Source: Cyanophora paradoxa CCMP329 (Eukaryota; Plantae; Glaucophyta). From it: a stretch of 56,704 nucleotides of DNA. Of the stretch, positions 23,941 to 52,349 are shown piece by piece. The notes below the pieces were generated by a model, which saw only the letters and a program-made list of their open reading frames with translations, was not told the DNA's origin and did not search any database. The translations under genes were made by a program, and so were the position numbers. How positions within the stretch are numbered: the first letter of the stretch is position 1; each line of letters begins with the position of its first letter. Where the stretch lies: contig QPMI01000464.1 of NCBI GenBank assembly GCA_004431415.1, positions 1-56,704 of the forward strand. The letters are read 5' to 3'.

Positions 23941-24162
23941 GGCGGCTGAGGTCCGGATCGCTGGGCGCAGTTACCGTAGTACGTATACGGGCGGAGACCC
24001 GCCAGACGCGTACGTATACGTACACCGGATCCTGAGTACTAGTGGATCGCCGCGCCGGCGCTGCGGCCGGCGCCGGGCCGCACCTCCGACCCGGGCCGGG
24101 CCGGCGGCGGGCCGCGCCCGGCCTGCGGCAATAAGCAAGGCATGAGGAGGACCTGCAAACCC

Positions 24163-24595
24163 TCCGAATTACCTGCAGCTGATCGATGTAACATAGCTAG
24201 CTACCAATATTAATAGTGCTCTAGATCTCGCCGGGCCTATAGCTAGGCATCCGGATCCGGATCCGGGCCGCGGCCGGTACTTTTTTTTTGCAAAAGTGGA
24301 CGTCGCATTGATACACCACGGCACATGTATCAATGTTCTACGTGACGTGCCCTTCCGACCGGTCAACTATCTAGCCGAAGGTGCTAGCTAGGTGCCGGCC
24401 ATGGGTCGCGGGCCGCGGCCGGTACGAGGTCCCCCGGCAGCGGGCGCGCGAGGGTAGGAGGTGGAGCTCGAGCGGGCGCTAAATCTAGTACTAGTACTGA
24501 TACTTGTTGCGCGTTCATGCAAACAATCCGAATTACCTGCAGCTGATCGATGCAGCACAGCTATATAGCTAGCTACCAATATTAATAGCGCTCTT
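24163..24595. repeat. Pair of ~60-bp direct repeats in a CTAG/palindrome-rich GC spacer
   Basis: CCGAATTACCTGCAGCTGATCGATG...TAGCTAGCTACCAATATTAATAG(T/C)GCTCT at ~24163-24222 and ~24528-24594. Confidence 0.7.
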
Positions 24596-24923
24596 CACGA
24601 CTCTCCTCCTCTCGCGATTGCAGACCCCCGCCGCCGGGAGGTCGATGTCGTACCCCATCATTCCTTCTACCCTTCCGATTTTCATCCCTCAGCACTCTCG
24701 CTCCTCCCTATTTACCCGGTTTAATTCTGATGATATATACGAAATATTTCAAAATTACGGGCGCCGGCTACTATAGGTATTAAATATTTGAATTCTGCGT
24801 GAAAATTATATATGTTGTCCGGATATCGATCTATCCTTCTGGCATTTTAAACATTTCCGTGCCGGCGGAGACCTGATACAGACCAGAGGCTGCACTGCCC
24901 CGGGGCAGGAATGTTTATCGGGT

Positions 24924-25112
24924 ATACTATCCGGCGATACTATCGCCCCGAGGTCATACTATCCGGCGATACTATCGCCCCAAGGTCATACTATCCGGCG
25001 ATACTATCGCCCCGAGGGCATACTATCCGGCGATACTATCGCCCCGAGGTCATACTATCCGGCGATACTATCGCCCCGAGGTCATACTATCCGGCGATAC
25101 TATCGCCCCGGG
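24924..25112. repeat. 6 x 32-bp tandem array, each unit with a GGCGATA-C-TATCGCC palindrome
   Basis: Unit ATACTATCCGGCGATACTATCGCCCCGAGGTC starts at 24924, 24956, 24988, 25020, 25052 and 25084. Confidence 0.95.
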
Positions 25113-25518
25113 TAATTCTATCCGGCCATCCTATCCTGATTGGTCGACGAATTTGTGTGGGGCGCCGGCATTCCATCCATATATGTTTCCGGAGTCGCCG
25201 TGATGTCATGACCCCCAGTGTGTCGGTGACGTCGGTGTATATATGTATATGTCGGAATATGCGAAAAAAAGAAAAACCAACCACAAGCACGGAGGTTCAG
25301 ACATATATACGAAATATATACATGACTGAATTGTTTATTTTTCATAGAACTCGCATGTTGTTTGCACGTATCTTGCATAGTGGGCGGGGCTTTTCTCTCC
25401 AATGGGTGTATCGGTGTCCACCACCTTATTTTTCGAATATGTACATATGTACTTTTCTCGATGGCATCGCCGATCACGATGCACAAAAAATAGGGAACAT
25501 CAGCCTCGAAATTTTGAA

Positions 25519-26136
25519 TTAGTTCTTGGGCTGCTTCTTGCGAGTCTCATTGAAACACTTGCGACATTTTGAATATAGACCATCTTTGGCAGTACTTCTT
25601 TTATTATAATCACTTGCAGGCTTTTCGATCTTGCAAGCAGAACAGGTCTTAGATTCGACGTTAATCTTTGGGCACATCTTCATTGATTCGGCATGCATTT
25701 TCGCATAATCATTCTTGCACTCTTTGCATGCTGAGTTGAACCCATCCGCGGTATGAGCATTGGTGTGGAATTCTGAGATTGGCTTAGTTTCTTCACAATT
25801 GGTGCACGTCTTAGATTCGATTTCAGGCTTTGGCTTTGAGGTGCGTTTAGAAACGTGTTCGGCTTGAACGACTTTGTAGCATGGGGCACAATATGCTTGC
25901 AGAGTAATGTTCCCCGATTTCAGCTTCCTCTCTCCAAACTCACAAGCCGGCTTCGTTTCCTTGCAGCGGTTGCATTGCTTTGTCTCAGGTTCGGGAAGTT
26001 GCCCCACAATGGGATAGGGAATCAGTGGTGGCATTTCAGCCAACGGGATGCATTGAACAGTGAAAGGCATTTTCGTAGGATGACAGTGTTTATAAAAAGT
26101 TGACATCAAATTTTGCGAGGGGTCGATTGCGTCCAC
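25519..26136 (-). CDS. Intronless protein with three tandem CxxC...CxxC zinc ribbons (virus/phage type); likely ATG at 26070
   Basis: KQCNRCKETKP..EF...YCAPC; KTCTNCEETKPISEF..DGFNSACKEC; KTCSACKIEKP..DGLYSKCRKC. This is the K.C..C...K...F....DG....CK.C pattern common in large-DNA-virus and phage HNH-associated proteins. Confidence 0.75.
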   Translation of the reverse strand: MDAIDPSQNLMSTFYKHCHPTKMPFTVQCIPLAEMPPLIPYPIVGQLPEPETKQCNRCKETKPACEFGERKLKSGNITLQAYCAPCYKVVQAEHVSKRTSKPKPEIESKTCTNCEETKPISEFHTNAHTADGFNSACKECKNDYAKMHAESMKMCPKINVESKTCSACKIEKPASDYNKRSTAKDGLYSKCRKCFNETRKKQPKN

Positions 26137-26754
26137 TACCTTATTTTTCTATCGATCCCCGATGGCATCGTGAAGCTCCCGATGCTATCGAGAGGTTCCC
26201 GATGCTATTGAGCAAGTTCCCGATGCAAAAAATAGGACTAAATGAGGGTACATTGCGGGAAAACGAGCTAGCTATACTACTATGAAAGGAATGCATAGAG
26301 TTATGATAAGTTATGCATAGTTTGGGGGAAACTTTGGGGGAAAGTTAAAGATTTATGCAAGGGGATACTGAGGATTGGGATAAAGTTAGTGCAAAGATAT
26401 GCATAAAGTTATAAAAACTATGAAAGATTTATGCATATTGGCACTGAGGAGACTGAGAATTCAAGATTGAGGGAAGTGGCGAGACTGAATAAGATAGGAT
26501 AATGTCGGATTTAATTGGTGTCCAGCACCCTTACCCGACCCCCGGCCCCTGGCCGAGCCACCCGGCCCATGGCCAGCCCATGGCCACCGACCTATATTCT
26601 GCGTGTAGGATTCTGCTGCATATTTAAAGTACATACAATCTGCTGCCAATTACAAAGAAGAATATATAGTTGTCGGGTCGTTGGCAACGTGGGCGAGACG
26701 CCACGTGGAGCAAGTGGGGCCAAAGTTCCGCGAGTGCCCCGTGTACATGTGTGA

Positions 26755-29700
26755 TCAGTAGATAGTTGCCCGTTTTTTCCCTCGCTGCTCCTTCATGTCG
26801 CAAGCGCTGCACATGCATGCGATTGAACGAAAAGAATTCTTGGTCAAGGGAGCCGACTGCTGAACAGTGAGAAATGGCATCACTATGAAACTAGCAAATC
26901 ATACCTTGTAGTTCCATGTGAGGGGTTCACCGGGTTCAATGACTCTTCTTGCATAGAAGCCATAATGTAACTTCCCGTTGACCATGCACTTTCGCAGCTC
27001 AACATTTGGGCTGCAACTGTGATTCATGAGTACTGGCCATCCACCTGTCGACATATCCAGCAGCATCCTGCCACTCATATCAACAAATCTTTCAATAGAG
27101 AATATAAGCAGAAGATTGGATTACGGTGTCCCTTCAAGCTGAATGTGCACGGTGATCTTGCTTTTCCGCGATTTCTCTATTGCAGTGCCTTCCTTGACAA
27201 AGCTGCCAACGAGCTCGGCCAGGAAGGTGTCTTTACGAATACGCTTGGCCCACTTGGGAAGCCGGACACCTGATCCACATTTGTCCTGGAACACTTCAAC
27301 AGATATACTGTGCGAGAAGCCAATCTCTCTGAAATGACGATTTCCACAGTCGAGGTCTCCGAAGGAGCATGTTCTCGCAGTGCATTGTTCTCCTAGGGAA
27401 GCGTTCGAACACATTGGCCCAGATCCCACGCTGCTGCACATTTCGTCGCCCCCCGTGTTCTTGCAATCACACAACTCTCCCGACCTGTCAACACGCTCTG
27501 GGAAACCAGAAGACTGTCATCTGTCGATTGGGATCGATTGACAGCAGCCTCTGCACCTTTGCAAGAGAGTGGAGTAGAAGTAGGGCCATATTGTTCACGG
27601 ATTTCCCACATGCGATCGCGGGATTTGCTTGACCCATCATGGGTCATGCAAGCCGTGAGAGGAGGGCTCAATTGAAGGAAAGGTGGCAACGGCATTGACG
27701 GATTTGCTTCAATTTCAGCATTATATTTGCGTTGCCTCTCAATGAATCTGCGGAGAATAGGTCGATCAACATGTACATGTGCAGTTCACAATCATTGCCG
27801 ACTCAAGCTTTTTCGCCTACCTCTGCTCAAGAGCCTGAATCAATGACTCCGTGTCGCCGTGTCCTGCTTGCCGTACCCTCTCAGAGCAAAGTTCTTCCAG
27901 CCTATTCTTGAAATCATGGAGCGTGAAGGGGTACTTGAAGGAAGCATGCTTGGTGAATTCCTCTAATGCACGGCTACGCTTTGATAGACGCGGGGGCCTT
28001 TTCGTGGAGCAATGGTTCTCGACCATTATGCCCACACAGGTGGACACCATGTGAAGGAAATTCGCGCAATGTACCCCACACTGCACGACATCACATCATT
28101 GGCAAAGCAAAACCATATGTGGGATGAGAGAACAACACAAACCGTCAGTCCCCCTGTCTGACGTCCTGTGTCGAGGATGATCGAGTGCACACGGGCTTTG
28201 GTCATGGTATGAGCACACCAGAAATCTTTCAAATTATCCGGCAAGGAAGAGCCGATAAGAGCCCAATCGTGCTTCTCGCCTTCAGTAAACCTTCTTCCCA
28301 GCATCGAATCGTGGATCAATAATCCAAGCCCGTCCGAAAACTTCATAAGCACAACTCCGCGCCTGCAATACGCAAATACTCTCAAGCTATATTTCGAAAA
28401 ACCACAGATACAATTCAGTTACCAATGATAACCAGTCTCCCATGGAAACGCAATTCCAGCCAGTGGTTTGCGGTGCATATAATACTTGGCCAACTCTTTA
28501 TGGAGGTGTCCTCTCAGTCGATCCATGTCGTCAATGTTGCCAACCTCGATGCAATACATTCCTCTCTTTGAGAAGGCATTGTGTACATCTTGAAAATAGA
28601 GATCTAAAAAGGAGCATGATCAGATAACTGAAGGCAGAGATGCGCTATCGCAAACGCACAATTTTGGATATCATGGTCGTTCAAAGGATCACCTTTCGTG
28701 TGGAGCTGCACGTACTGAAACTTGTGCTCTTTGAGCTGCTCTGGAGGTGCTGTGGGTGGAGGCATGGGCGCCGGCTGTGCAGTTGGTGGATCAATCGACG
28801 GGCCCAATCGGTAGATATAGAATTGCTTCTGCCCGTACGTCCCAATCAACGCCGGGTCAGCGAATCTATTCGTGGAGCCATCTGTTCCCGGAAGATCACT
28901 TTTTGCTGGAGCTGGTGTGCAGCCAACTGGGATCAGTCGAGACAGCCCAGTCTTCTTACAATCCCGACGTGTAATCTCTTTCTGTGTAATTACCTGTAAT
29001 TTGAAATTCACGTGAATTCACAAAATGGGCTTCATAGCCAGGGCACGAAGCGCACCAGCAATCCGGGAGCACAGGAGAGCAAACGTGAGAGGATTTCTTG
29101 CCTTACACCAGGGGGCATAACATAGTCATTGAGAATCACATGGGTGAAATGGTGCCTGTATGCAGGTCAGAACAAGCAGCCATCAAGCAGCTGTGTGCTC
29201 ACCTTGCAAAGTCTACTTCCCTCGCATCTCCCCAGACCATACTTGTGCGGGCCATGTATTTTTCGAGCATGATGAGGACATCTTTGTGCTCGACAGGATC
29301 AAAAACATCCATGCACTGCACAAGAAATTGATCTTGAAGAAGGTTGTATTCGTTCTCTCCTTTGGAGACCTCAAATCCGACCAGCTTTCCCACTTGGAAT
29401 GGCAGGCGCCGCACATACAGAGCAGCTATCAAAGCGAGCTGCGCAAAAATTGTCCAGAAGACACATGTCAAGATTAAGAAACGGCATCTCGCAGAATGAG
29501 AAAGAGACACCTTCCTGAGCAAGCCACCTGCTCCAGCTCCGATGTCGGCCAGAACGATATCTTGTCTAGAGTCTTGAGGAGGCTCGAGGAAGTAACTGTC
29601 TGTGGGAAGAAGGCCATTTCTGGAGAGAAGAACATCTAAGAGAAGAAGACCATCCAAAAGTCCCAGCTCCCCGTACTTCAGTGCTACACAAAGCTCCTGA

Positions 29701-32700
29701 GCTGAATCTGCCTCTCGCCTAGTCGGCATTTCCTTCGGGACTGTAGAAAAGCGCCTTTTGCATTCAAGATATGTAGATTCAGAGTAGCGGCCTTGTGTGA
29801 ACACTTTGCAGAGCGGTTCCCATCGCGAGCAAAACGACTGGATTTTCTTCCACTGGTGAAAGATAAGTTGCAGAGGACATTGATTAACACACTGTTGAGG
29901 GTTAATCAGAAGTGAGTACTGAGGACGGATACAAAGAACACACCTCTTCCACATCCGGAAATGGTTCTCCCGTTGCACAGAGTTCTGATTGATGGTTGTT
30001 GTCATATGTTTCCACTTTGTTTCCGTCGACGGCTAATGCTTCTGCATCCATCTCCGAGATCCAATCGAATGCTGGCATCATGCGCGTTGAACCAGCTTCA
30101 TCCCCGAATTCCGTGGCTGGCCGCGGTGAAAACAACACCAGAGCTGATTGTTGCTGATCGTAGGTTTCCAAAGAGCTTACAAGAGGCTCAGACCCGACAT
30201 TCTCCTCAGTTTCATCGACCTCTGCGTCAGATTATGAGCTATCACATCATCATCATTGGGCCATGCTGCCCGAGGATTTCATTAGGCCCTCACCAGCCAG
30301 CCCATTGTTGGCAGGTCTTGAGTGGGAGCCGGGCGAATCTTGCAACGAATTCGAGTGCTCCAGCTCGAGCGCCTGGGATGGGCTGGGGCTCCTCCTGCAT
30401 GCTGCTTCTACCAACGTTTCTGGAGGAGCCTGATCATTGCTTAAGCCGCCTGCAGTCGATGAAGCCTCCAGCGAACTGTGCAAATCCAGAGCACTGTCCC
30501 CAGATACAGCTCCCTCCAAACGAGCCTCATCATGACGATCTCCAAGAACATCTACACCACAAGTTTAGCGGGTTCAGTTTCCAAAGAGCTTACAAGAGGC
30601 TCACGAGGCGATTGACAGGCCTTGGCTTCAGACCCGACATTCTCCTCAGTTTCATCGAGCTCTGCGTCAGGTCATGAGCTATCACATCATCATCATTGGG
30701 CCATGCTGCCCGAGGATTTCATCAGGCCCTCACCAGCCAGCCCATTGTTGGCAGGTCTTGAGTGGGAGCCGGGCGAATCTTGCAACGAATTCGAGTGCTC
30801 CAGCTCGAGCGCCTGGGATGGGCTGGGGCTCCTCCTGCATGCTGCTTCTACCAACGTTTCTGGAGGAGCCTGATCATTGGTTAAGCCGCCTGCAGTCGAT
30901 GAAGCCTCCAGCGAACTGTGCAAATCCAGAGCACTGTCCCCAGATACAGCTCCCTCCAAACGAGCCTCATCATGACGATCTCCAAGAACATCTACACCAC
31001 AAGTTTAGCGGGTTCAGTTTCCAAAGAGCTTACAAGAGGTTCACCAGGCGATTGACAGGCCTTGGCTTCAGACCCGACATTCTCCTCAGTTTCATCGAGC
31101 TCTGCGTCAGGTCATGAGCTATCACATCATCATCATTGGGCCATGCTGCCCGAGGATTTCATCAGGCCCTCACCAGCCAGCCCATTGTTGGCAGGTCTTG
31201 AGTGGGAGCTGGGCGAATCTTGCAACGAATTCGAGTGCTCCAGCTCGAGCGCCTGGGATGGGCTGGGGCTCCTCCTGCATGCTGCTTCTACCAACGTTTC
31301 TGGAGGAGCCTGATCATTGGTTAAGCCGCCTGCAGTCGATGAAGCCTCCAGCGAACTGTGCAAATCCAGAGCACTGTCCCCAGATACAGCTCCCTCCAAA
31401 CGAGCCTCATCATGACGATCTCCAAGAACATCTACACCACAAGTTTAGCGGGTTCAGTTTCCAAAGAGCTTACAAGAGGTTCACCAGGCGATTGACAGGC
31501 CTTGGCTTCAGACCCGACATTCTCCTCAGTTTCATCGAGCTCTGCGTCAGGTCATGAGCTATCACATCATCATCATTGGGCCATGCTGCCCGAGGATTTC
31601 ATCAGGCCCTCACCAGCCAGCCCATTGTTGGCAGGTCTTGAGTGGGAGCTGGGCGAATCTTGCAACGAATTCGAGTGCTCCAGCTCGAGCGCCTGGGATG
31701 GGCTGGGGCTCCTCCTGCATGCTGCTTCTACCAACGTTTCTGGAGGAGCCTGATCATTGGTTAAGCCGCCTGCAGTCGATGAAGCCTCCAGCGAACTGTG
31801 CAAATCCAGAGCACTGTCCCCAGATACAGCTCCCTCCAAACGAGCCTCATCATGACGATCTCCAAGAACATCTACACCACAAGTTTAGCGGGTTCAGTTT
31901 CCAAAGAGCTTACAAGAGGTTCACCAGGCGATTGACAGGCCTTGGCTGCAGGCAACTGCCTAGGCAGATCTGAATTGTCAACGTTGTCAACGTTGGCACT
32001 CTCTGCAGGCACATTGTAGCATGAGATGAGGCAGACAGGTACAACTGCAGAGCCTGTCAGAGCCAAATCTGTGCTGCGGTCACTGTGCTGGTCTTCCAGC
32101 GGTTCGTGCTGGTCTTCCAGCGGTTCAAGTACGACATCTGAACAAATGGTTCTTTAAGAGCGTGCGGGAACAGAAGGAATCACATATGGTCCTCACTAGG
32201 GTTTCTTGTCGACACGATGTGAAAGCATTGCTGTAGTGGTACAGATCTCGCTTCGTCGGGAGGACAGTCGAGAAGGAAGGTGTACCACGCCCTCATGAAC
32301 TCATTCTGTTCTGAAAGAGGGCCTGTGTTTGGTCTGGCAAGAGGAGGCGGAGCACACTCTGAGCCAAAAACCAAATTAGAAACTGTATTCATGAAGCTTG
32401 CAAGTGCGGAAACGCACGCTTGCGCCTCTTGCACGGAGGCAGTGCTGAACGTTTTTTCGCCTTGGTGTTTCTCTGTCCAGGAGCAGCCTCAGTGTCAGTC
32501 TCTGCATGCCCAGCCATGTCCTGCACATCCTCACAGAGATCCACATCTGAGCAATGCTCTCAGTGCATGCACATGCAGACATGCAGGCCAAAAGAACATG
32601 CAGTCCTCACCAGGTCTTTTACTTTTTACCTCATCCCAGCAGTCATACAAGGACAATTGCCGTGCCTTGCGATACGTGCAGTCAAGAAGAAACGTGTACC

Positions 32701-34052
32701 AGCTCCGAATGAAGTTGCCCTTATGACTAAGCGGACCATGCTCTGGCCTGACAGAAGGGGGCTCGCCTGCTCAAGCAAACGAATCAGCATCGGCTTAGAA
32801 TGTTCAAAAGTCAATGCACGTCTTCTATAGGTTTGGCGCTTCTTTCGTTTGTGTGTCTTGGAGTTGCTCTGTGCAGGTAAAGCCTCGGTGTCACTCTGCC
32901 CAGGCTCGAGCTCGGTGTCGCTCTGTGCATGCCCACTCTCTGCATGCCCAGCCATGTCCTGCACAGCCCCACGGAGATCCACATCTGGGCAATGCTCTCA
33001 GTGCATGCACATGCAGACATGCAGGCCAAAAGAACATGCAGTCCTCACCAGGTCTTTTACTTTTTACCTCATCCCAGCAGTCATACAAGGACAATTGCCG
33101 TGCCTTGCGATACGTGCAGTTCTGAAGAAACGTGTACCAGCTCCGAATGAAGTTGCCCTTATGACGAAGTGCACCTTCGGTTGGCCTGACATGAGGAGGC
33201 TCGACACGTTCTGATCAAGCAAACGAGTAAGCACCTGGCTTAGAAAGAGCGCAAGTCAATGCACGTTTCAAAGAGATCTTACCCCTTTTGCGTTTGTGTG
33301 CATTGACCTTGCTCCGTGCAGATGCAGTCTCAGTGCCACTCTGCGTGGGTGCACCCTCGAGCTCGGTGTTGCTCTGTACAGGCGCAGCCTGAGTGTCATG
33401 CTCGCTCTTGCGCCTGCTCTTGGGATCGATGTCGGTTTCACTCTGTGCAGATGCAGCCTTGGATTCTCGCTTGCACTTGCGGTTGCTCTTGGGATTGAGC
33501 TCTTCGCCTGGCCTGCCAAATCAGTGCGTTTCCTAAGATTGCATGTCTTAAAAAGGGAGTCTCGCCCTCAAGAACGCATCCGGGCGCCTGTTTGCGCCCT
33601 TTTTCTAGTGCTGTAGGTAACACAAACGGGAGCCGCTGAGAAATTTGATAGAGACACGCACGAGAACCCGCAGCGTCCAGTTGAGAATGTGTTGCTCGTA
33701 CAAAAGGTGGCTGAGGCTGCACTAGCACGGCTGGGCGTTCCTGTAGCGCTCGCCGCTCCTTGGGCGTTGGAACTGCTTCGATGACGCCGGGCGCCGGCGC
33801 GAGCTGCTGCAGTTGCTCCCATTCTTCGATCAAGCGCTCAAACATTCGCGCCTGAGCATTACCCGCCAGCTGACGAAGCGCTTGGATAAGCTGTGGCGCT
33901 AACTGCTTGTACTGCGGCAGCGTGCCTCGCTGCAGTTCGAGCTTGTGCCTCGCGACTGTAGGGTGGTCGAGCGCACATTGCAGAGTTGTGCGAATCCGTT
34001 GTTCGACTGTTGCATTCTCCGCACTGTGTGTGCTCTGCGCACCGCAAATCAA
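26755..34052 (-). CDS. Multidomain chromatin enzyme: N-terminal repeats - DOT1-like class I MTase - Ulp1/C48 protease - AWS/SET/post-SET; 5' part above ~32200 tentative
   Basis: Hand-splicing keeps one frame from ~32070 to the stop at 26755. DOT1-like: KYGEL, LADIGAGAG, LVGFEVS, GDAREVDF, THVILND, FYIYRL. Ulp1: LNDHDIQNY, FPWETGYHW, IHDSM, QTGGLTCG. AWS: CDC..C..CSN..QC..C..CGN. SET: MNHSCSPN, GEPLTWNY. Post-SET: CMCSAC. Confidence 0.8.
30190..31948 (-). repeat. 4 x 440-bp near-identical tandem repeat inside the DOT1-Ulp1-SET gene
   Basis: Period 440 (30234/30674/31114/31554). Each unit holds 72-bp and 53-bp GT-AG introns, leaving 315 bp = 105 codons. Confidence 0.9.
32490..33290 (-). repeat. 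~438-bp duplication encoding an F(I/M)R(S/A)WYTFL..C motif (third diverged copy at ~32290)
   Basis: 32501-32730 matches 32939-33165; peptides NFIRSWYTFLLDC, NFIRSWYTFLQNC and EFMRAWYTFLLDC. Confidence 0.75.
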
Positions 34053-34240
34053 CTAGTGCTCGAGCCCGTTCGCGCTCGCCCGCACGCGCACTGCATGTCT
34101 ACGCATCCGCTCGCTCGCACTGGAGTTGGAGTGCGCGCGTGCGCGACGTCAACGTTGAACTTCGAAATCGAGCGGGCTCGAATTCGAGTACCCAGAATTC
34201 CCGCCAGCGGTTCCAGCAGCCAGCAGCCAGTTCCAGCAGA

Positions 34241-37116
34241 ATGTACGAAGACGAACTCAAGCGCTGGCAGGGTACTCACCGGCGCCGCATATGTCGCCGC
34301 GCCGCGGCGCGCATCGATATCGCCTCAGGGCCTATCGCCTATCGATACACCCACGCGCGCAGGCCCGCTCTTAACAGTCTTGGATAAAGCTTTTCGATGT
34401 CGATGCAAGCCTGATCGCTCAGATCATGAACCTACAGCTACAGCGGTCGAAGCGCTAGCAGCCTCTCGTTTGGCGAGGCAGAGGCTGCTGGCCGCGCCTT
34501 CTGAACTTGCATCGACTTCAGCATTCACAAATATGCTTGCTACGGTTCTGCGGTGCGTGTGAGCACCAGCAGCATCCGTGCATACTAACTGAGTAGCAGG
34601 GTGATGTTCACATCGGAAGGCACAGATGCAGCTTCAGATGATCCGTGCATGCAAGCTTATCTTCTACTTCTCTCCTTCGCGAAGCTTCGAGGATCCCATA
34701 CAGCCTTGAAAGCTTTTGAGTATGCGCTGCTTCGCTGTTTCGCGCAATTGCAGAATTCAGAATTGATGAATTCGTTTTCGTTCAGAGCATGCTGTGAACT
34801 CCCTGGTAGCGAGTTGAGCGAGTTCAATGACATTCTAGACGTTCGGCAGACATTGAAGACTGTTGAGAGGGAACGTTCCGAAACAGCCATGCAGCAATTG
34901 TGGGGCCAGCTGATATCAGGTCTCCGCCAGCATCGCGCAAGCTGGGGTGAGACACTCTGGAGAAAGTACACTGATGCATCCAGCTATGATTTGGCTGGTG
35001 CATGGGGGTCTTCCATGAGCTCTGTGCACACCCGAGCACAAGCCATCACACATTCCGCAAGGTAATTATAATTTAAACTCGAATCATTCATGCAAATTTG
35101 ATCTCAAATCGATATTATAGGTTCTTCTTACGGGCCCTGTCAAGTCCGATTGGATTGTCCTACACAGGACATGACAACACGTCTCCCACACACGTACAAT
35201 CCAAATACAGCACACAGGATTTGCCCTCTGTAGGTGTGCGGTGTCGTTTGCATTGTCCTCCGTCATCGACGTCTTTTCAGGAGAGATTCTGAAAGAGCGG
35301 GAGGGCATTGACTTGAGACTTGGCATCCTCGCGCCGGGCTATACGTTCTGTACAATTACTAACAGTGGAAGCACATCTGATCTCGAATCGACCATTGCTG
35401 AAATCGCGAACTTCGTGCATTTTTCTGGAGCGGTTCCTTGTAAATATGTTAAATATGCTCATACTTTATTTCGACAGACTGCCAGCAAGTGTGGAATGTT
35501 GAAGTGTGCGATGGGGGCTTATGTGTGGACGGAAGGTTCATGGGGAACATCAAGAGGTGCTCTTGGGACTAATGTTGCAAACAACAAGCGAAATCCTATT
35601 TCTTCGAGCTCATTCCGAGGAAGGTACATGGAAACAAGAGATGTGGTTATCAAACACTCACATGCACGGATATTTAATCACAGAGAAAAGCATGTGGTCA
35701 TTCCTTGTGTCTATAAGTCCATTCCCCCAAGCGAGCAAGTGATGGGATGCAAAATAGTGCACAGGGCCATCGACGACATCAGATTGGTGTGTTGTTTCCT
35801 GAGCTGTCAAAATTCCGCCGCCTAAGCGAGCAAACTACTCTTGGCAAGAACATCATACGCCGTCGGGAGAGTGGGTCGAACCTGTCAAGCGAAACGCTAG
35901 AGAGGACGCACCCATTTGCGGACCTGCCCATTAAGGTGCATTCTAATTAACTTGAATTTAGCTCACTTGGCGAGCATTTTATTGTTTGACAGGTTATTGT
36001 CTGCGAAGTGGTCTTAATGGACCCGTGGGAAGGGATCCGCTGGCTATCTTTGGAGTATCTTATTCTGCTGTCAGACCTTTGTGTGGAATTCGGTATTGCC
36101 TTAGTTTTCGATGAAGCAATAACAAGTGCGTGCTTTATGTTGCTCTGAGATCAGAAGCTTTCGAACTATTGTCGCTGTGTGCAGATTCATACCGAACAGC
36201 AAAATCATTCTTCGCTTTTCAACAATATGTGCATGCTGCTCATGCTCGAGAGAGAAGAGTTCTTACGCATGGCATACTAACCGGGAAGGCTATTACCCCA
36301 TCATTTCTCCTGGTCCATTGAGCCCTCATTATTTGAATTTTAATGATTCCCTCTATATGGATAACGCTTTGTACCCATCACGAAGGTGAAAGAGATGCCT
36401 AACAAAGAGGACCCATGGAAAGCTGTGTATGGCCACAGGTGGTCTGCACACGTTCTCGAACAGAGATTTAAAGGTGCAAATGCCTCATAATTCCAAGGTG
36501 CAAATGTTTCGGAGTATGCTGATCTCTTTATGGCCAGAATTTGTTACAGTGCAGCCGTATCGCCTCTCCCTGATACATACGTCGTGTTTTCTGGAAGACT
36601 GTATGTACATGTTGGCTTCGAATTCTAGCTAAAAATTTCGAATTCGATTCTACTAGCTTACGTATACGTTCCGCAGTTTGTGAACTGAAGGAAACTAATC
36701 CTTGCTTCGAAGAAACCTTTCAAGAGCAATCAGACGCAATCTTTGACACACTGGACGATTTTCTGGAACGGCTTCGCCATTTTCAAAGTCATGAACCCAC
36801 TGCAAAGCGTTTTCGTGGATCCCAAGGTCAGGAGGCCTTTAATGATCCGCATGAATATCAAGATGAGAAAGACCGTGAGAACGAGAAGACCATGTCAATC
36901 ACCCGTGCTGGTGAGACTATCAGCTCGAGCACATCTATGTGAGCACATCCATCTGAGTTGCACGCAGGATTTCTTTTCGCAATTCCCTCCCTCATGGCGG
37001 CGAATATGCCAGAACTGGTGACCACAAGGGTGACACCTGAAGGAACCCCATCCTTCCATCGCTGCATCTTTCCGGCCGACTTCAACGTCAAGCTACTCAC
37101 CAAGGCTCTTTTTTAG
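34241..37116 (+). CDS. Multi-exon protein with a divergent class-III PLP-dependent aminotransferase domain and a long N-terminal extension
   Basis: Ordered motifs ITNSGSTSDLE; GAY...GTSRGAL; VIVCEVV...SLEYLILLSDLCVEFGIALVFDEAIT|NSYRTAKSFFAF...ILTGKAI. Class III consensus: TNSGSEA, GAYHG, IVEP..EYL..L..LC...GILLIFDEVQTGFGRTG..FA..T.GK. The Schiff-base Lys is retained (~36286). Confidence 0.72.
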
Positions 37117-37189
37117 TACTAGATCTAGTACTTGTGATAACAAGCATGTCAGCTGGCATTATCTGCAACTACACTAAGATTGGCAGGCG

Positions 37190-40014
37190 TTACAGTATCT
37201 GACTTTGCCAAGAAGTTGAGGGGCGGCCACGCTTCCGTTTTGGGCTGCAAGAGTCCTTGCCCGCTGCCTCAACTATGTCTGCATTGCTCTTGTCTGCATG
37301 TCTGCAACTATGTGAGAAGCCGTGGCGTGGCGTTGCTCTCCTCACACTTCGGGCACATGAAGGTGCCCGATCGGACCCGCACAACTCCCAGGCACTTCTT
37401 GTGGTATGAAAGGGGGCAGCCATCACAGAGGACGAGAGCCCCGTCATGGCCGCAGAGGTCGCACACGACGTTGTTCACGAGGCCTGCAGGCAGCCCCTTT
37501 ATCTGCAGTGGGGTTTGTCAGGTTCTTGTGCACGCTTTTCTGCTGCGCCCCGAGCGCCCGGTTACCTCCCCAGTGGCGTGTTTGTCAGCCTCCTCGAGGG
37601 CCTGGGCGGATAGTGAGTTCGTGAACACCACAGCAAGGAGAAAAACGCGTGCCCTTCTCAGCTCCCTCAGCAGCACGTAGTCACTCTGCTTCAGGAGCTG
37701 TTCAGCAGCATCTCGGAGCGCCTTCGCCATGTGCTTCTCGTTGTCTGTTGCTCCCACGAAGGGGACCACGTTCCCAGGCCTGCAGCTGCCGAGCGGGGGA
37801 TCGCCCTTCCCCTTTCCACCGTAGCCAAGCCAGATGACAGTGATGGGCTTGCCTGGCCTGCTGTCCGCAACAAACGCTGGCCACATCCTGCGATAGAATC
37901 GAAGTTCAGCTTGCGCAGACAGAAGATAAGACTAGTCGGCAAATCTAGACGCACGGGTCATCCTCAGGCTCCCTTGCCCATACAACCGACCCATACTCCG
38001 GAGGCTCATGGTGCGGCATAACTATTCTAGAAACGTGATCTCCGGAGTCTGCTGACGACGGTACAATGGCTTTATCGATCTCTTCTGTGGCCGTTGAGGG
38101 GCGCTCGCCTCGCTTGCATCTATTTTTGCTCCCGCGTCTGCACCCGCCCCGGCCGCTCCGGCCCTGTCTGCATCCGACCCGGCCACCCTGATCAAGCCGC
38201 CCCGTGCAGCCACGTCTGCTGCCCCGGCCGCGGCTATTCCTCTGGCTCGCCAGCTGCAGGGCTGATGAGGAGGAGGCTGCAGGGGCTGCAGGTGCCGCAG
38301 CTGCCTCAGCCACAGTCGCCTTGGATGCCAGTCGGATAGTGATTGTGTTGAAATCACGTCTGCAGATTTTGAGGATCTCCTGCGCGTCCACCAGCCCAGA
38401 GTGAGAGGCGGGGCCCCGCGGGGTGGAGCGCGAGCGCCTCAGGGCCGGAAGTGTGCTAGCCTTTAATGCAAGGTTGCAGTTAAGGTACTGGTCCCCGCGC
38501 AGGTCGTCCTGGCACCCGTACGCCAACGAGTCGACCCTGCCGCGGCCAAGCTTTATGAGCGTGCAACAAGTGAGGTGTGCCCACAAGCGCGGACGAACTT
38601 GATGAAAGCATCGGCTGAGGACAGGTTGCGTATCGATTTAAAGAAGAACTGGAAAGCTCTGAAATCGTCTTAGCATAGTCTTAGTATGAATTTTGTGACG
38701 CAGTCCCCAGGGCGCACTTTGTGGCAATAAAGCTGCGGCTCTCTTCGTCCGACAGCTTCACATGCTCCTCGATTGCAACCTGCACGGGGCCGGGCGCACA
38801 GTTAAAGGGAGGGTCGGGAGGGGCGGACGGGAAGGGTGGACGAGCCTTGAGGGCGGCGTCTGAGGTGGAAAACCCCGAGGCGACGAGCTTTCCCCCCACT
38901 TCGAGCTCAAAAGTGCCCTTTTTGGAGCGCTTCCGCGGCATTCTCAAATCAGAGGCCTCGTCCACTGTGACAAGAAGCCCTGCCGTGGCGTTGCTCTCCT
39001 CACACGTCGGGCATATGAAGGTGTCCGGCTCCGGAGATTCGCCCAGGCACTTTTTGTGGTATGACAGGGGGCAGCTTTTGCATTGGACCAGAGTCCCGTC
39101 GATACCGCATTTAGTGCACCACACGTTGTTCACAAGGCCTGCAGGCAGCCCCTTTATCTGCAGTGGGGTTTGTCAGGTTCTTGTGCACGCTTTTCTGCTG
39201 CGCCCCGAGCGCCCGGTTACCTCCCCAGTGGCGTGTTTGTCAGCCTCCTCGAGGGCCTGGGCGGATAGTGAGTTCGTGAACACCACAGCAAGGAGAAAAA
39301 TGCGTGCCCTTCTCAGCTCCCTCAGCAGCACGTAGTCGCTCTGCTTCAGGAGCTGTTCAGCAGCATCTCGGAGCGCCTTCGCCATGTGCTTCTCGTTGTC
39401 TGTTGCTCCCACGAAGGGGACCACGTTCCCAGGCCCGCAGAACGCCGTCATCGGTTGGCCCTCCTTCCTCTTGCCGCCGTGGCCAAACCAGATGACAGTG
39501 ATGGGCTTGCCTGGCCTGATGTCTGCAACAAACGCTGGCCACAACCTGCGATAGAATCGAAGCTCAGTTTGCGCAGACAGAAGATAAGACTAGTCGGCAA
39601 ATCTAGACGCACGGGTCATCATCAACATCCCTTGCCCATACAACCGACCCATACTCCGGAGGCTCATGGTGCGGCATAACTATTCTAGAAACGTGATCTC
39701 CGGAGTCTGCTGACGACGGTACAATGGCTTTATCGATCTCTTCTGCTGCGGAAGATGCACATGTGGCTGTTGAGGGGCGCCCGGACTCCGCTGACGACGG
39801 GACAACCCGGACAAGGGCCTGGGCTCCGCATGCTTCGGCGGTGCTCACGTGCACGCCTTGCATCGATATCACAACTAGCAAATTGCAAGGAGGGTCCCAG
39901 CTGGCCGAAAGGTGTCACCGCGACGTGCAAGTCTAGATCTGGCTGGCCCTTGATCCACCCGGAAACCGCTGCGCGCATGTCACGCTGCTGGTGTAAACTG
40001 AAAGCTGCCGGCAC
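37190..40014 (-). CDS. Chromatin reader with two PWWP-PHD modules and a C-terminal AT-hook (one gene or two tandem genes)
   Basis: YGSVVWAR..DD P|LWPAFV and P|MWPAFV (PWWP, intron-split). PHD C4HC3: WCTKCGIDGTLVQCKSCPLSYHKKCL..FICPTC and VCDLCGHDGALVLCDGCPLSYHKKCL..FMCPKC. KRKRGRPS near 37220. 37327-38086 duplicates 38985-39744. Confidence 0.75.
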
Positions 40015-40469
40015 ATCGAGGCGCGGATCTGGACAGCAACGTTAACGATTACGTGTCGGGGATAGATCTAGAAGCCAATTGCAGAAAAAACGTTTCGGCG
40101 TAGCGGTTAGCGCCCCGGCCACTAGTACTGCTCATGCAGCTGGGCCGGTAATTCACCAAATTAAAAACAAAAGAGCGCCCAGCTATAGCTAGCTATAGCG
40201 CTAGGCGGCATAATAGCGCTAGCGCTAGTGCTAGCTCCCAGCACGCAAGCGAAGGCGGAACGCTCAGCAAAGCTTGTAATTAAGCGAACACGGGTATTAA
40301 GCAATCTTTGCAGAAAGTTAGCCGGAGTGGCCATGGGCACTGCTAGCAACCTGCCGGCTGTTTGGCAGTGTTGGCAGCTGCAGTCCTTAAGCTTTGCAGT
40401 CTCGCTGAATGCATTTACAATCCATTCATCTACAATCCATTATGCCGCATCTATGTATACAATCCATTC

Positions 40470-41970
40470 ATTGATCTCTCATCCTCTTCCGGCCCTTCCC
40501 CTTCCCTTTGCCACCCTGCTTGCGTTGGGTTGCACCACTTGTGCTTTGAGCAGGCACCACCGTGGGCTCGGGCTGAACTTGAACAGGCAGCTGTGTGCCA
40601 AGCCATTTGTGCATCTGCACAACTGGCACGAAGCGTTGATTGAATGTCTCGATGCCTGGATTGCAATGTCATGATCAGCAGAAATAGCATCAATGATGGA
40701 ATCTTTGAAAAAGACTACATGCCCAGTTGCACGAGCTGCTTCTCGAAATAGGCTGTCTTTTGAAAATCGTCTGGACGTGACGATGTGACCAATCTCCACT
40801 TGTCGACCTGAAGACCTGCCTCATCTGCAGCATCCTTGATCGCTGAGATCGTCCTGAAGCCACAGTGACACATTCTGCTCCATACATCCTTTTTCTTGCT
40901 TGACGAGAGAAGAGCCAGCATACTTGGCTGCTGATAACGAGAGAATAGTGCTTCAGATGGATCCAGTAACTCCAATTGCCGTGTGATGTTTCCGAAGAGA
41001 GCATTTGACTTCGCCCACCTAGATTTTAGCGTAACTAAAGATCCGATCCCAATGAGGATGACGATAAGTGCGCTCACTGCCCATACTTGTTTATGAGCTG
41101 ATGCGCCTCGGGGTTGGCATAGAAATCATTCTGCTGGAAAAAGTTCATTTGCAGAATTTCCCCAATTTCGACGAACTTTGTCGTGCTGTCGTTACATGAT
41201 CATTATAAGCAAGCGGTATGACAAGCAAAGGATGCTTACACGATTCTTGCACACAGCCGGTACGTGACTGGATCATCCGAAGCAGCGCCCTGTTTCTGAT
41301 GAATAACTGTGATTTGCGTCTCGACATTTGATTCACTGTATACGTAGTTTTCGTCAGAGATTTTTGACGTTTGCTTTCACCTTGCAAGCTGTACCAGGCA
41401 TTGTGTATGATAAGGACTTGGGGGCTGGATGCCATGATTTGACTTGATTTGTCCTTGCATGACTTACACACAAGTCCAGTCTCAATATCCATTTCGTCTC
41501 CACTGTGTTGACAATTCACGATTTTCTTGAGTACCTTGTTTGCTTCTGTCTGGTCGTGTGCAGCGAAGCCATAATATGAGCCAGAGTAGGGAATATTCGG
41601 ATCCACTTCTCCATCCATTTCGGCAGTGTCTGTGTGGGGCCGCCGATCGAATACCAGAAAGGCATTGGGCTGCGTGAACTGTCAGCACAAGTCAGAACAA
41701 AGAATATTAATGATCCGTCAACTTACCAACCCATCAATTGAGCTCGCAACTTCCTGATGAAAATGTCACTTCTAAGTTCGAGCCTCGGAGTACAGAAGCT
41801 CTGTTGAATAATTTTACCGCTTCTGCCAAAGTTGTTTGAAGTTGATCTCTGAAAACCTGGCCAAAATCCGCGAAGGCCAATGGCGGTCCAGACACTTGAC
41901 GGATCGCGCATTAGATTCACATTTGCATGACTGTGATGGCTGCAGAATGCTCTCACCAACCATAAGAGTA
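40470..41970 (-). CDS. Multi-exon hypothetical protein, weak USP/C19-like segment
   Basis: GT-AG introns and exons LVCKSCKDKSSQIMASSPQVLIIH..VTYRLCARI; basic tail KGKGKGRKRMRDQ*. No catalytic boxes seen. Confidence 0.3.
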
Positions 41971-42451
41971 GTTCGGACAGCGCTCATTTCGTATATTGCA
42001 ATTGAGGTACTACTTGTACAATTGCCATGAAGTGAAGGTTTCCTGATAGCAGGCGAACACACTTGCACACAACAATGGCAGCAAAGATTTGGATTTCCTA
42101 GCAGCTAGTTTACAATTCATTCGGTTACGAATGATTGTGTGTATAAATGGTTGAAGAGAATATTGAGGAAAAGAAGAGTACTAAAGGATCTAGAGACTAC
42201 AAATGATTAGCTATGAATGCAGAAAGTCTGCAGCTACTCTATATCTAAATCTACAGTATGAATGCGCTCATGCATCATATGCATGACAGACATAAGAGAA
42301 ATCATGCTCATGCAGCTGTAAAGCAAATGAATGGGAATATGAATCTGCATATGAATAATAAAAGAAGGGTAAGCGGGCAGCCTCCGCCATGCGGCACGTC
42401 CGCAGTGGCGGCAAGGGTGCCCGCGCCCCAAAGACAAAGACAACGCCGGAA

Positions 42452-43438
42452 TCAAGCAGAAGGCGAAGATGACGGCGAAGGCAAGGGAGTCGGGATGTTC
42501 CCGGCGAGAACCATGGCGCTGGTGAGACCGGGCCGCGCCGAACCCTGAATGTAGCGGCGATAGACCTGAGAATCCGGATGCCAACGTCCGAAGGCGCGAA
42601 TGACGTCGTCGGGAACACCAGCAGCTGCAAGAGCACAGGCCCCACCGCGGCGCAGGCTGTGCGTGGCGAAACCAGATTTGTCAATACCAGCGAGGTTGAG
42701 AAGCTGCTGAAGTGCGAAGCCGACAGACGCCGGAGAAAGGGCGACACTAGGATTGCGAAGCTGTCCAAATACGACATCCACAGTAGGAGGCAGAGTGGCT
42801 ATATAAACACGAAGACGAAAAACAGGACATAACACGTTGCCTGGCAGAGCCGAAATAAAAAGCTCGTGACCAATCCGAGTCTGATCTGTTTTAGAGCGAG
42901 GGACGCGGAGGACCATGCCATCTGGGCGGAAAGATAAATGAGACCGCCGAATTTGCACAATCTCAGAGCGACGGAGGAGGCCAAAGAAACCGACGGTGAT
43001 CATAGCAATAGAGCGACGATGGGTCTGTGATGGAACACGATCGGAAGCTACCGCTAGCCGGCGAATATGTTCGACCGAAAGGACGGCCGCTGGGCGAGTG
43101 GGGCCATCGCCTAGGACTCGGCGCAAGCCCGTGAGGACGTGCTGAATAAGCACTGAGCTGAAAACTGAGGTATCAAAGCGCAAGGTCTCACACTCATTAC
43201 GAACTGCAGAAAAAGCTACATTTATAGTTGAGAAGACGTAGTCATCGTCAGCAATATCGCACAAAAAACCGGCTAGAACCTCAGCATCGACGGGAAAAGG
43301 TAGAACACCCAGCTGAATGCAGAACTGCCGAAAACGGCCAACCCACATTGCATATGCATCTCGCGTGGATGAGGCAAGATGCTGGTTTGCGTAGAACGTA
43401 ATGCGAGCACAGATGTGGGCCCAACGAGCTGCATCCAC
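42452..43438 (-). CDS. Tyrosine recombinase of the DIRS-type element
   Basis: GLLRRSE (R), RSKTDQ (K), HSLRRGG (HxxR), GRW, YRRY (Y). Confidence 0.93.
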   Translation of the reverse strand: MDAARWAHICARITFYANQHLASSTRDAYAMWVGRFRQFCIQLGVLPFPVDAEVLAGFLCDIADDDYVFSTINVAFSAVRNECETLRFDTSVFSSVLIQHVLTGLRRVLGDGPTRPAAVLSVEHIRRLAVASDRVPSQTHRRSIAMITVGFFGLLRRSEIVQIRRSHLSFRPDGMVLRVPRSKTDQTRIGHELFISALPGNVLCPVFRLRVYIATLPPTVDVVFGQLRNPSVALSPASVGFALQQLLNLAGIDKSGFATHSLRRGGACALAAAGVPDDVIRAFGRWHPDSQVYRRYIQGSARPGLTSAMVLAGNIPTPLPSPSSSPSA

Positions 43439-43530
43439 TGCAGGGTATGGTTAGAAGCATGAGGGTGTGCGCTCGATTGCATTTATAATTATTTGACACT
43501 AGTTTGCAATTGGGTGCAGCTAAAACTGAA

Positions 43531-45444
43531 CTAGAAAAGCGAGGAGCAGCCACTCAGGAAGAGCAGCACGAGTTGGACCGAAAAGGCATACTGTGTGACC
43601 CCGACCAAGATGCAGAGGGGCTCCACAGCTGCAGCCTGCAAGATAGGCCACCATGGCTGTGAGGGCCATTCGGGTACTACAACAATCATCCGAGCTCGAC
43701 AAGCTTGAGCATGACGAACCACCCGCAGTAGGACTGCAGGGTCGGGGAAAACATAATTAAAATCACGAGACCAATCAACAGTGAAGCAGTCTACTGCCTC
43801 TGCAAGGCGGTCAAAAGGATCAATGCTATTATAGCGAGGGACACGTGCAGAGGAAGCTAATGCCATTCGATCGACATCAGGCAAGCCATATCTGTTAACA
43901 ATGCGACGGAAAACAGCATCGGAAAGCTGATAGTCAGCAGGGGCAAACCAGCGACTAAGATAATCGGCGAAATTATTGGTTTCTCCAGGTATCCACTCAG
44001 CATCCATGAAGGCACAATTTTGCAAGGCGAAATTCCAAATTTCCTTGGCGATTAATGTAAGCTCGGGGCTACGACCGCCACCATTAAGAATGTACTGCAC
44101 TGCATTTGTGTTATCTGAGCGAACTAGTAAATTAACGTGCTGCAGGTAAGGACTGAAATGATGCAGAGCACGAATAATGGCGGTCATCTCACGCCATGCA
44201 GGCGTCTGGGCCGACTCTGCAGGAGTCCACTGTTGTTGGAATGAGAGATCGCCAACCTCGGTGGTGACAAAACCACCAAGACCGATCTTGCTGGCATCCG
44301 TCGTAACAACGAAAATTCGCTCTGGCCGGATGGCACACCGCCCATTATAGCGGGCGAGATTTGCATGCCACCACAGAAGCTCCTCCTGGGCCTCCGGCGA
44401 TACCACCGCCGGGGCATTCCACCGAAATTGTCGCTGGGTAATATCAATGTTGCGATAAATGGATCGAGTATGAATGCGAGCGGGTGCAATAGCTAAGGCC
44501 ATTGACATAAGCACACCGACAATCGAAGCGAGTGTACGAGCTGACATCTGAAATTGCACGCCTCTAGCCTGGCACGACTGGATGCGCTTAGCTGCGTCCT
44601 TTAGCCGGTCCTGAAGCTTACTAAGCTTCTGCAGAGGGACCTCAAACATCATAGATGTGGAATCTACAATAAACCCTAAAAATTCGACACGCTGTGCAGG
44701 CTCAAGGGCCGATTTCTCATTAATGAATAAGTGCAGGTGGCGAAAAAGATCGAGAATGAAATTGCGAAGATTAACAGCGGCCTGGTACGTGGGAGCCGCA
44801 AACCAGAAATCATCTACATACGATACCACGGTAATACCGTGTGCGCGGAGAAATTTAATGACCTGACGTATGATCTTGGTGAATGCATATGGGGCATGTG
44901 AGAGCCCGAAGGGTAAAACGGTGTATTCGAAGAAAGTACTATCGTACTGGAAGCCCAGGTACGAGAAATATTGCGGGTCTACCGGTACATGATGATATCC
45001 CGACTCGAGGTCGATAGTAAACATAAACCAGCCAGGTCGCAGCAAGGCGATGACCTCGCGCATATTTTCATAGCGAAAAGGGACAGGAGGAAGACCTCGA
45101 TTTGTTGGGCGGCCATCCCAAATCAGTCTGAGCTTATCACCAGTCTTCTTTGGAACCGTAAATAGCGAGCAAACAATTTTCGGGGGCTTGGGGGCCACCC
45201 GAATAGCGCCGGTACCGAGCAGCTTCTGAATTTCTGCCCGAATGAAAGTACTCTCACGAGGGCGCTGAGATTGACCAGCATTGTAATGTACACTAGGAGG
45301 CATATGCTCGACGCCAGCAAGAGGGTAGCCGTTCTGAAGCCATGAAAGGATGTAATCACTTGTTCCGATTGCACGCCATGCCGCCAAGGCATCCGCACTT
45401 CCGAGACAGCGAGCAGTAAAACCTGACAGAAAAAACAACAGCAC
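43531..45444 (-). CDS. Reverse transcriptase - RNase H - Dam-like methyltransferase polyprotein
   Basis: DLESGYHH, LPFGLS, YVDD, FLGF (RT); TTDAS, WREM, SDN, ADYLSR (RNase H); DRMA...DCFTVDW...YVFPDP...PEWPSQPWW (DIRS MT domain). Confidence 0.93.
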   Translation of the reverse strand: MLLFFLSGFTARCLGSADALAAWRAIGTSDYILSWLQNGYPLAGVEHMPPSVHYNAGQSQRPRESTFIRAEIQKLLGTGAIRVAPKPPKIVCSLFTVPKKTGDKLRLIWDGRPTNRGLPPVPFRYENMREVIALLRPGWFMFTIDLESGYHHVPVDPQYFSYLGFQYDSTFFEYTVLPFGLSHAPYAFTKIIRQVIKFLRAHGITVVSYVDDFWFAAPTYQAAVNLRNFILDLFRHLHLFINEKSALEPAQRVEFLGFIVDSTSMMFEVPLQKLSKLQDRLKDAAKRIQSCQARGVQFQMSARTLASIVGVLMSMALAIAPARIHTRSIYRNIDITQRQFRWNAPAVVSPEAQEELLWWHANLARYNGRCAIRPERIFVVTTDASKIGLGGFVTTEVGDLSFQQQWTPAESAQTPAWREMTAIIRALHHFSPYLQHVNLLVRSDNTNAVQYILNGGGRSPELTLIAKEIWNFALQNCAFMDAEWIPGETNNFADYLSRWFAPADYQLSDAVFRRIVNRYGLPDVDRMALASSARVPRYNSIDPFDRLAEAVDCFTVDWSRDFNYVFPDPAVLLRVVRHAQACRARMIVVVPEWPSQPWWPILQAAAVEPLCILVGVTQYAFSVQLVLLFLSGCSSLF

Positions 45445-47904: not shown

Positions 47905-47927
47905 TAAGAATACCTTAGAAAAATTAA

Positions 47928-48200: not shown

Positions 48201-48222
48201 ACTCTATATATAACCAATATTC

Positions 48223-49054: not shown

Positions 49055-49060
49055 TTTACA

Positions 49061-52342: not shown

Positions 52343-52349
52343 CTTTATA

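Follow-up and report, generated by a model that had tools for sequence, protein, structure and literature searches.

The window analysed here is the whole 56,704-nt stretch of contig QPMI01000464.1 from Cyanophora paradoxa CCMP329, a eukaryotic sequence with short introns and ~50% GC, falling to 35–41% past 46.5 kb. Near its middle, a block present at baseline sequencing depth holds three closely packed multi-exon genes, here called A, B and C, and a fourth, D. Gene A joins a SET methyltransferase domain to DOT1-like and Ulp1-like regions, gene B resembles a class-III aminotransferase, and gene C combines PHD fingers with PWWP-like parts. The locus is real and unusual. A sequence-only reading had presented the trio as a self-contained module that writes, reads and de-SUMOylates chromatin, possibly as mobile-element or virus cargo; our results lead us, tentatively, to a single-copy block of duplicated chromatin genes that is not mobile now. 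The features of the block are as follows.

26511–42001, no strand: baseline-depth, CpG-depleted block of 15.5 kb with genes A–D, delimited by unitigs and the CpG observed/expected ratio (o/e).
26755–34106, minus strand: gene A, 28 exons, hand model of 1,928 amino acids with N-terminal repeats, DOT1-like, Ulp1-like and AWS-SET-postSET regions; start uncertain.
26755–27497, minus strand: AWS-SET-postSET of the SET2/NSD/ASH1 type, three exons, recognised by Pfam and solved relatives.
28010–28730, minus strand: Ulp1/C48-like protease region (His1484, Asp1503, Gln1553 and Cys1559 of the model).
28730–29891, minus strand: DOT1-like class-I methyltransferase region, with YGE, DxGxGxG, GxE, PG and the final strand colinear.
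30188–31951, minus strand: four tandem repeats of 440 bp (99% alike) in gene A, with two introns per unit, forming a low-complexity acidic linker.
32197–33264, minus strand: three repeats of a module of ~45 amino acids in gene A, with depths of 82 and 93 over the joints in DNA run X1.
34095–37116, plus strand: gene B, 12 exons, 789 amino acids from the furthest ATG (640–790 depending on the start), with a helical N-terminal part and a class-III aminotransferase-like fold.
37190–39863, minus strand: gene C, nine exons, 730 amino acids, with PWWP-like part, PHD, domain X, linker, PWWP-like part, PHD and AT-hook-like tail.
40468–41983, minus strand: gene D, multi-exon, without a family match, within the baseline-depth block; its 5' side adjoins a retroelement.

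Exons were joined by hand from a six-frame reading, with introns picked by eye. The resulting models of A, B and C are free of internal stops (given plausible splicing, ~3,450 codons are interrupted by neither a stop nor a frameshift) and confirm the three multi-exon genes, with the positions and orientations listed above, that the sequence-only reading had described. Their 46 introns measure 36–76 nt, 44 being GT-AG and two GC-AG; a purine is found at donor position +3 in 41 of the 46 (background, 200 of 365 GT on the strand of gene A) and a YAG acceptor in 43 (background, 219 of 531). Since the introns were selected by eye and candidate introns are plentiful, at ~135 per kb on either strand, an open frame alone is weak proof and good donor and acceptor letters are not independent proof. 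The main support for these predicted models is that the domain motifs stay in register over the junctions. Independent support for splicing was obtained for gene C only, from a spliced paralogue (described below) that omits 66 nt corresponding to the GC-AG intron 38780–38845, and in which 66 letters replace a 193-nt span at the site of two model introns and a 64-nt exon. None of the contigs of RNA-type runs X21, X22 and X24 came from the A, B or C of the window itself, and no RNA run was listed as containing the words of 33300–40100; these results give no evidence on expression. An exact-sequence lookup of ten open reading frames (ORFs) of the window in a protein collection returned no matches.

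Genes A and B lie head to head, as had been read from the sequence. The start codons of both are uncertain (34106 or 33845 for A; 34095, 34241 or 34533 for B), and the separation, earlier put at a few hundred bp, is therefore bounded between a slight overlap and ~690 bp. Genes B and C converge: the stop of B ends at 37116 and that of C begins at 37190, which leaves 73 nt between them (~75 bp had been claimed), given the last intron of C. That intron is ambiguous and would clip the final cysteine of the second PHD finger. With the intron unspliced, gene C would stop at 37308–37310, 191 nt from B, and the AT-hook would be lost, so that both the AT-hook and the 73-nt spacing depend on it.

Domains were sought with Pfam in single unspliced exons, using 107 ORF pieces in all, of which 44 cover genes A–C and 49 cover genes A–D. 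Gene A contains a SET domain, which passes Pfam (E = 1.8e-11) and has the NHSCxPN motif and the terminal tyrosine. The best solved relatives are SETD2 (E = 1.6e-8), NSD3 and ASH1L, and residues 5–107 of the AWS-SET exon align with an enzyme specific for lysine 36 of histone H3 (H3K36; E = 2.5e-5). The AWS directly before the SET domain falls below the Pfam cut-off (E = 0.032). The postSET has three cysteines as CxCxxC, the pattern in the SET2/NSD/ASH1 family being CxCx4C. Identity of the SET domain to its best metagenome relatives is ~26–35%.

Upstream of the SET domain, a DOT1-like fold is likely. The spliced region is colinear with 22 bacterial PF08123 proteins over YGE, DxGxGxG, GxE, xDA/xDF, PG and the terminal strand, and its end-to-end profile score (z 3.9) was reached by none of 300 shuffles, a control region giving z −1.1. 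A local hidden Markov model (HMM) scored 3.5 bits, the best shuffle reaching 1.8, and pairwise scores were at noise level. Likewise, the His-Asp-Cys triad and oxyanion glutamine of the Ulp1-like region are in register with the three displayed bacterial C48 enzymes; the profile score, derived from only six closely related references, lies within the shuffle range (z 0.4, equalled or exceeded by 98 of 300 shuffles). In none of the 44 ORF pieces of genes A–C did Pfam recognise a DOT1, Ulp1, aminotransferase or PWWP domain. A sequence search of the PDB with the DOT1 exon gave nothing relevant, and a single-sequence structure model was unusable (predicted local distance difference test, pLDDT, 44). 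The DOT1-Ulp1-SET writer of the sequence-only reading thus stands for SET by its Pfam match, is weakly supported for DOT1, which scores above all shuffles with no Pfam match, and is a motif-level call for Ulp1.

The predicted DOT1-Ulp1-SET fusion is likely the new part and the firm novelty of the locus, and it resembles known chromatin cargo. In the literature searched, which was mostly open and without Repbase Reports, we found no description of a single chain with DOT1-like and SET2-like methyltransferases around an Ulp1-like protease, no paper on DOT1 together with SET in giant viruses, and none tying a class-III aminotransferase to chromatin or placing one with PWWP and Ulp1 on a mobile element. 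The rest of gene A is repetitive. The contig of the 440-bp unit has a depth of 256 against ~90, and the ~45-residue module has a diverged relative elsewhere in the genome. Among the internal duplications of A and C, the ratio of nonsynonymous to synonymous differences (pN/pS) is ~0.6–0.9, being near 1 between the repeats of A (0.092/0.099) and 0.7 between the units of C.

In gene C both PHD fingers, of the C4HC3 type, pass Pfam (E = 5.9e-8 and 1.4e-5). Each PWWP-like part shows a W-A-R...x-W-P motif, a later W-F/L-G strand and a helical tail, followed by the C4HC3 PHD. The main PWWP-like exon had no match in Pfam or the PDB, and its single-sequence model (pLDDT 45) had no fold match. A passage of PMC3119473 describes the methyl-lysine cage of PWWP domains as three aromatics, two of them at i and i+3 (Y18 and W21 in HDGF2). 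In gene C position i, as placed by motif, is aspartate in both units and glutamate in the paralogue (at a loose end), which leaves the cage short of three aromatics. With the first cage aromatic replaced, reading of H3K36me2/3 by gene C, and the write-read loop that had been built on it, are doubtful. The earlier description of gene C as a doubled PWWP-PHD unit with an AT-hook therefore keeps its PHD fingers, has its PWWP parts by motif with an incomplete cage, and has an AT-hook that hinges on the ambiguous last intron.

The two units of gene C share a 777-nt duplication at 91% identity. The introns hardly differ between the units (2 of 67 and 0 of 63 positions), while the PHD fingers are far apart (synonymous divergence, pS, 0.48), which makes the gene look like a mosaic. 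A spliced contig of 1.24–1.26 kb with one PWWP-PHD-X unit, 80–87% like gene C, was present in three of three RNA-type runs (from two studies) and in both DNA runs examined for depth. That it might be C's own first unit was considered and rejected, as it matches C's own other unit at only 3 of the 14 listed variants. The most plausible reading of gene C is that a one-unit gene, spliced at another place in the genome, was copied, rearranged and doubled internally. A second RNA-type contig, of 2,204 nt, matches 38403–38440 in the middle domain, which indicates that this domain has a further expressed relative.

The aminotransferase-like part of gene B starts at ~35121 and is very diverged. Ten class-III motifs occur in order over residues 314–771, in a stretch of ~480 amino acids. 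The aspartate that would contact pyridoxal 5'-phosphate (PLP; Asp565 of the model) and the Schiff-base lysine (Lys604) are kept, ~40 residues apart, the lysine being placed by motif and not by HMM alignment. At what we take to be the corresponding sites, the glutamine after the PLP aspartate and the C-terminal phosphate-binding threonine are replaced. Against a 37-sequence HMM the protein scored 9.6 bits (maximum of 200 shuffles, 1.8), equal to E = 0.5 in a Pfam-sized search. Local alignment with hhalign gave 42.6 at a probability of 70% (maximum of 40 shuffles, 23.7), the global mode having failed, and the end-to-end score of z 3.7 was reached by none of 150 shuffles (control z 1.4). Furthermore, in an unbiased NCBIfam scan of 17 pieces, the exon with the PLP aspartate matched only four families, all of them transaminases (E = 0.03–0.09). 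No match to gene B was found in Pfam or the PDB, and a full HMMER search with an exon of B gave two matches to bacterial repeat proteins, rejected as summed weak stretches. A class-III aminotransferase fold is likely, though very diverged; the PLP aminotransferase-like gene of the sequence-only reading is partly confirmed, by motifs, by the PLP aspartate and lysine and by scores above shuffles, and it lies below curated cut-offs.

The copy number of the block was followed in two DNA runs, X1 and X10, one from 2019 and one from 2024. Unique unitigs over 26511–30217, 33211–37509, 38058–39164 and 39716–42001 show no differences from the window in either run, at depths of ~81–94 (X1) and 16–23 (X10), contig depth being a rough guide only to copy number. 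The trio is thus single-copy at the nucleotide level, an outcome that the sequence-only reading had itself named as speaking against a cassette. With likeness set at 80%, depth is raised over the Ulp1 part (155 against 94) and the aminotransferase core (142 against 88), as well as over the N-terminal repeats of A and over gene C, and not over the DOT1 and SET parts. Hence the genome also contains diverged paralogues that cover portions of all three genes. Among the 24 runs listed, all 20 of the DNA type (one possibly the source of the window) keep 95–97% of the words of 33300–40100; this conservation says little, as the samples may be near-clonal.

Sequences of other kinds border the block or lie in it.

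25150–26510, ORF on the minus strand: multi-copy left flank with an intronless zinc-ribbon ORF of the HNH/EndoVII type at 25519–26106 (PHROGs E = 2e-20); depth 260–3,100 against ~90.
40050–40273, no strand: palindrome-rich short repeated stretch upstream of gene C; depth 342 against ~88, with a loose end at 40273.
41972–45835, minus strand: tyrosine-recombinase (YR) retrotransposon of the right flank, with open frames for reverse transcriptase-RNase H at 43531–45444 and for YR at 42452–43450, and with 61-nt exact direct repeats.

Depth over the YR retrotransposon is ~700 in X1, ~8 times baseline, and multi-copy sequence runs on to 46543; over the low-GC region beyond, depth sums to 13,000–30,000 in the same run. 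Overall the flanks stand at 3–30, 8 and more than 100 times the depth of the block. These large and unrelated contrasts indicate that the block does not travel with either flank, and cargo of the left HNH segment, of the YR retroelement or of the right viral element was rejected on depth. Among the 49 ORF pieces of genes A–D, Pfam gave no transposase or recombinase match. No terminal repeats or target-site duplication were found, the flanks sharing nothing beyond a palindrome-rich pair of 26 nt (81% alike) and exact matches of up to 13 nt; nor were several near-identical copies seen, the long unique unitigs being at baseline depth in both DNA runs. Helitron ends, compared with the features in a passage of PMC11417382, were likewise rejected, as only palindromic CTAG-rich stretches without paired termini were seen. 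Gene D, having no family match and adjoining the retroelement, leaves room for a mobility gene that was lost or is not recognised.

Searches of viral and metagenome contigs gave a similar picture. The SET exon found 72 metagenome and two viral loci, and none of the 74 matches other parts of A, B or C (77 loci, 669 kb, many of them short). No relatives were found there for a bacterial DOT1 query or for the B exon, nor among 400 candidates for the PWWP exon. A word-based protein search with B, AWS-SET and PWWP exons, weak in being limited to single exons, gave nothing at E 0.01 among longer proteins. Viral cargo is further opposed by the 46 introns and by the two viral SET loci, which carry none of the other domains. 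Carriage by a mobile element or virus, as had been suggested, is therefore not upheld, given the baseline depth, the want of a mobility gene or termini among the sequences searched, the unrelated depths of the flanks and the introns.

The block also differs in composition. For all 2-kb bins before 26 kb, CpG o/e is 1.04–1.27; through the block it is 0.59–0.85, save 1.02 at 34–36 kb, where A and B start; tile medians are 0.78 in the block (27 tiles) against 1.13 on the left (47 tiles), the tiles not being independent. The step is sharp near 26 kb. TpG/CpA rises in step with the drop in CpG, which together fit past CpG methylation, and three of six differences with T/A in the window and C/G in the paralogue fall at CpGs of the paralogue, although these counts are small. 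A locus marked as active and resisting silencing, as had been supposed, would sit poorly with this depletion, which fits past methylation rather than escape.

Other features of the neighbourhood were noted. In the left flank a 32-bp tandem array (6.7 copies) precedes the HNH/EndoVII ORF within 24888–26510, with weak relatives in three viral contigs. Short pieces of the YR retrotransposon are present in RNA-type runs. From 46544 to 56704 lies a decayed virus-like element, low in GC, very high in copy and with CpG o/e of 0.24–0.42; it begins at a palindrome with 35-bp arms and holds AdoMet decarboxylase, HNH-type, tail-repeat and patatin genes, many of them fragmented. Within the first 46 kb, palindromic hexamers are densest at 23900–24800 and 40000–40400. 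Each of these stretches precedes a gene on the minus strand, lying upstream of it, and the two possibly represent the promoter style of the organism; we infer that 40050–40273 is promoter-like. At 19619–20178 (plus strand), 6.6 kb from gene A and outside the CpG-depleted block, a divergent histone H3 variant with two introns lacks both residues that A is predicted to methylate, since the equivalent of K36 is arginine and the K79 loop, one residue longer, has no lysine there; it may be CenH3-like or another variant. A low-complexity multi-exon gene at 21440–23900 (minus strand), 3 kb from A, has two VIDL motifs, which we take to resemble SUMO-interacting motifs. Further left, an inverted paralogous pair of multi-exon genes (1100–2700, minus strand; 17300–18960, plus strand) is ~64–79% alike without a family match, and 4600–5700 is a 119-bp tandem array of 74% GC, a 75-nt piece of which recurs at 15711–15785.

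Taken together, we favour a block in single copy whose chromatin genes evolve fast and likely arose by duplication, and which lies between unrelated repeats and is not mobile now; we would give this account slightly less than an even chance. Duplication and exon shuffling would have brought the genes together in methylated DNA rich in repeats, perhaps aided by transposons. From S-adenosylmethionine, gene A would methylate H3K36 through its SET2-type domain and H3K79 through its DOT1-like domain, and would strip SUMO by its His-Asp-Cys triad, activities that together would oppose SUMO-dependent silencing. Gene C would bind chromatin weakly, by its PHD fingers and by DNA contacts and not by a full methyl-lysine cage, and gene B would use PLP to act on an omega-amine, with no demonstrated link to A or C. 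The block can be explained without joint function, which is less likely than independent duplicates piling up in repeat-rich DNA. The self-contained module is not borne out, as gene C is read as a rearranged copy of a paralogue with an incomplete cage and no mobility features are seen, and we treat the three-gene cassette as an unproven hypothesis. Several observations weigh against our preference. No frame is broken and both triad-type active sites are preserved, as expected of genes that function now or did so recently; the paralogue patches of A and B have similar depth, which a linked second copy of the two genes would also explain. Moreover, the CpG depletion could reflect gene-body methylation of active genes or foreign origin, and two of three genes with chromatin domains, tail to tail with B, are, by rough judgement, more than we would expect from chance.

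The trio could instead be the cargo of a mobile element that is large, old or not recognised as such, and act as an anti-silencing module whose mobility gene was lost or separated; A would write active marks and remove SUMO, C would anchor, and B would supply or modify an amine. Passages of PMC2836005 describe Ulp1 and PHD in Ginger1 and Mutator transposases, and passages of PMC12730594 report that Phytophthora has SET genes in its HarbingerS and MuDR elements and that VANDAL elements bear anti-silencing genes. The compact divergent and convergent packing, the paralogue patches for all three genes and the start of the block at the compositional step would all suit such an origin, and gene D, cut by the retroelement, could be the missing piece. 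The depth, termini and flank results tell against it, as do the other 74 SET loci, none with DOT1, Ulp1, aminotransferase or PWWP/PHD nearby, and the one-unit paralogue of C, so that we regard cargo as rather unlikely. A shade less probable again are ordinary lineage-specific host genes that are neighbours by chance, A having been domesticated as a chromatin enzyme and B serving metabolism independently of it. Typical short introns, intact frames, the words kept in 20 of 20 listed DNA runs and the identity of the 2019 and 2024 runs accord with this, although the samples are possibly near-clonal and the repeats on both sides, the young internal duplications and the CpG depletion do not. Furthermore, no homologue of the exons of A, B and C was found by word-based and HMMER searches, which sets them apart from conserved housekeeping genes. 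If the genes were young pseudogenes, methylated and silent duplicates that drift but still have open frames, this would explain the pN/pS values, the CpG depletion with its three of six differences and the ambiguous last intron of C, but on small counts, and the ~3,450 open codons and the catalytic residues kept in the SET, Ulp1-like and aminotransferase-like parts make this improbable. Least probable of all, in our view, is a selfish anti-silencing unit with a second linked copy elsewhere, in which A writes H3K36 and H3K79 marks and strips SUMO, the PWWP-PHD protein tethers, and B transaminates the epsilon-amines of histone lysines and so blocks repressive marks; lysine 6-aminotransferase, which transaminates the epsilon-amine of free lysine, offers the analogy.

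If active, gene A would extend the known chromatin enzymes of repeat-rich DNA and couple, within one enzyme, deSUMOylation to the two main marks linked to transcription, and it would allow a direct test of whether such marks shield DNA from SUMO-dependent silencing. Should gene B act on chromatin, its product would represent a novel class of histone-modifying enzyme.

Compared with the SET2/NSD/ASH1 enzymes, gene A shares the AWS-SET-postSET order, NHSCxPN and the final tyrosine. It differs in that its SET domain is fused behind DOT1-like and Ulp1-like domains and the postSET cysteine spacing is shorter, and PWWP and PHD, which in NSD are on the same chain, are here in a separate gene. The DOT1-like region has the core motifs of DOT1 in order, the comparison being with bacterial members only, but is very diverged and fused to SET; a passage of PMC3417536 traces the origin of DOT1 to effectors of intracellular bacteria. 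Gene C resembles PWWP-PHD readers in having the motifs followed by a PHD, whereas its cage position i is non-aromatic and its single exons give no Pfam PWWP match. Gene B agrees with class-III aminotransferases (ArgD, GabT, BioA, PatA and lysine 6-aminotransferase) in motif order, PLP aspartate and Schiff-base lysine, yet it falls far under every curated cut-off and has an extra helical region at its N-terminus. Set beside transposon cargo (Ginger1, Mutator/Kaonashi, HarbingerS, oomycete MuDR and VANDAL), whose accounts, in the passages cited above, name neither DOT1 nor an aminotransferase, the trio showed no transposase, termini or multi-copy family in our searches and does not behave as part of a mobile element; by its domains it is nevertheless like such cargo, with the same vocabulary of Ulp1, PHD and SET in repeat-rich DNA.

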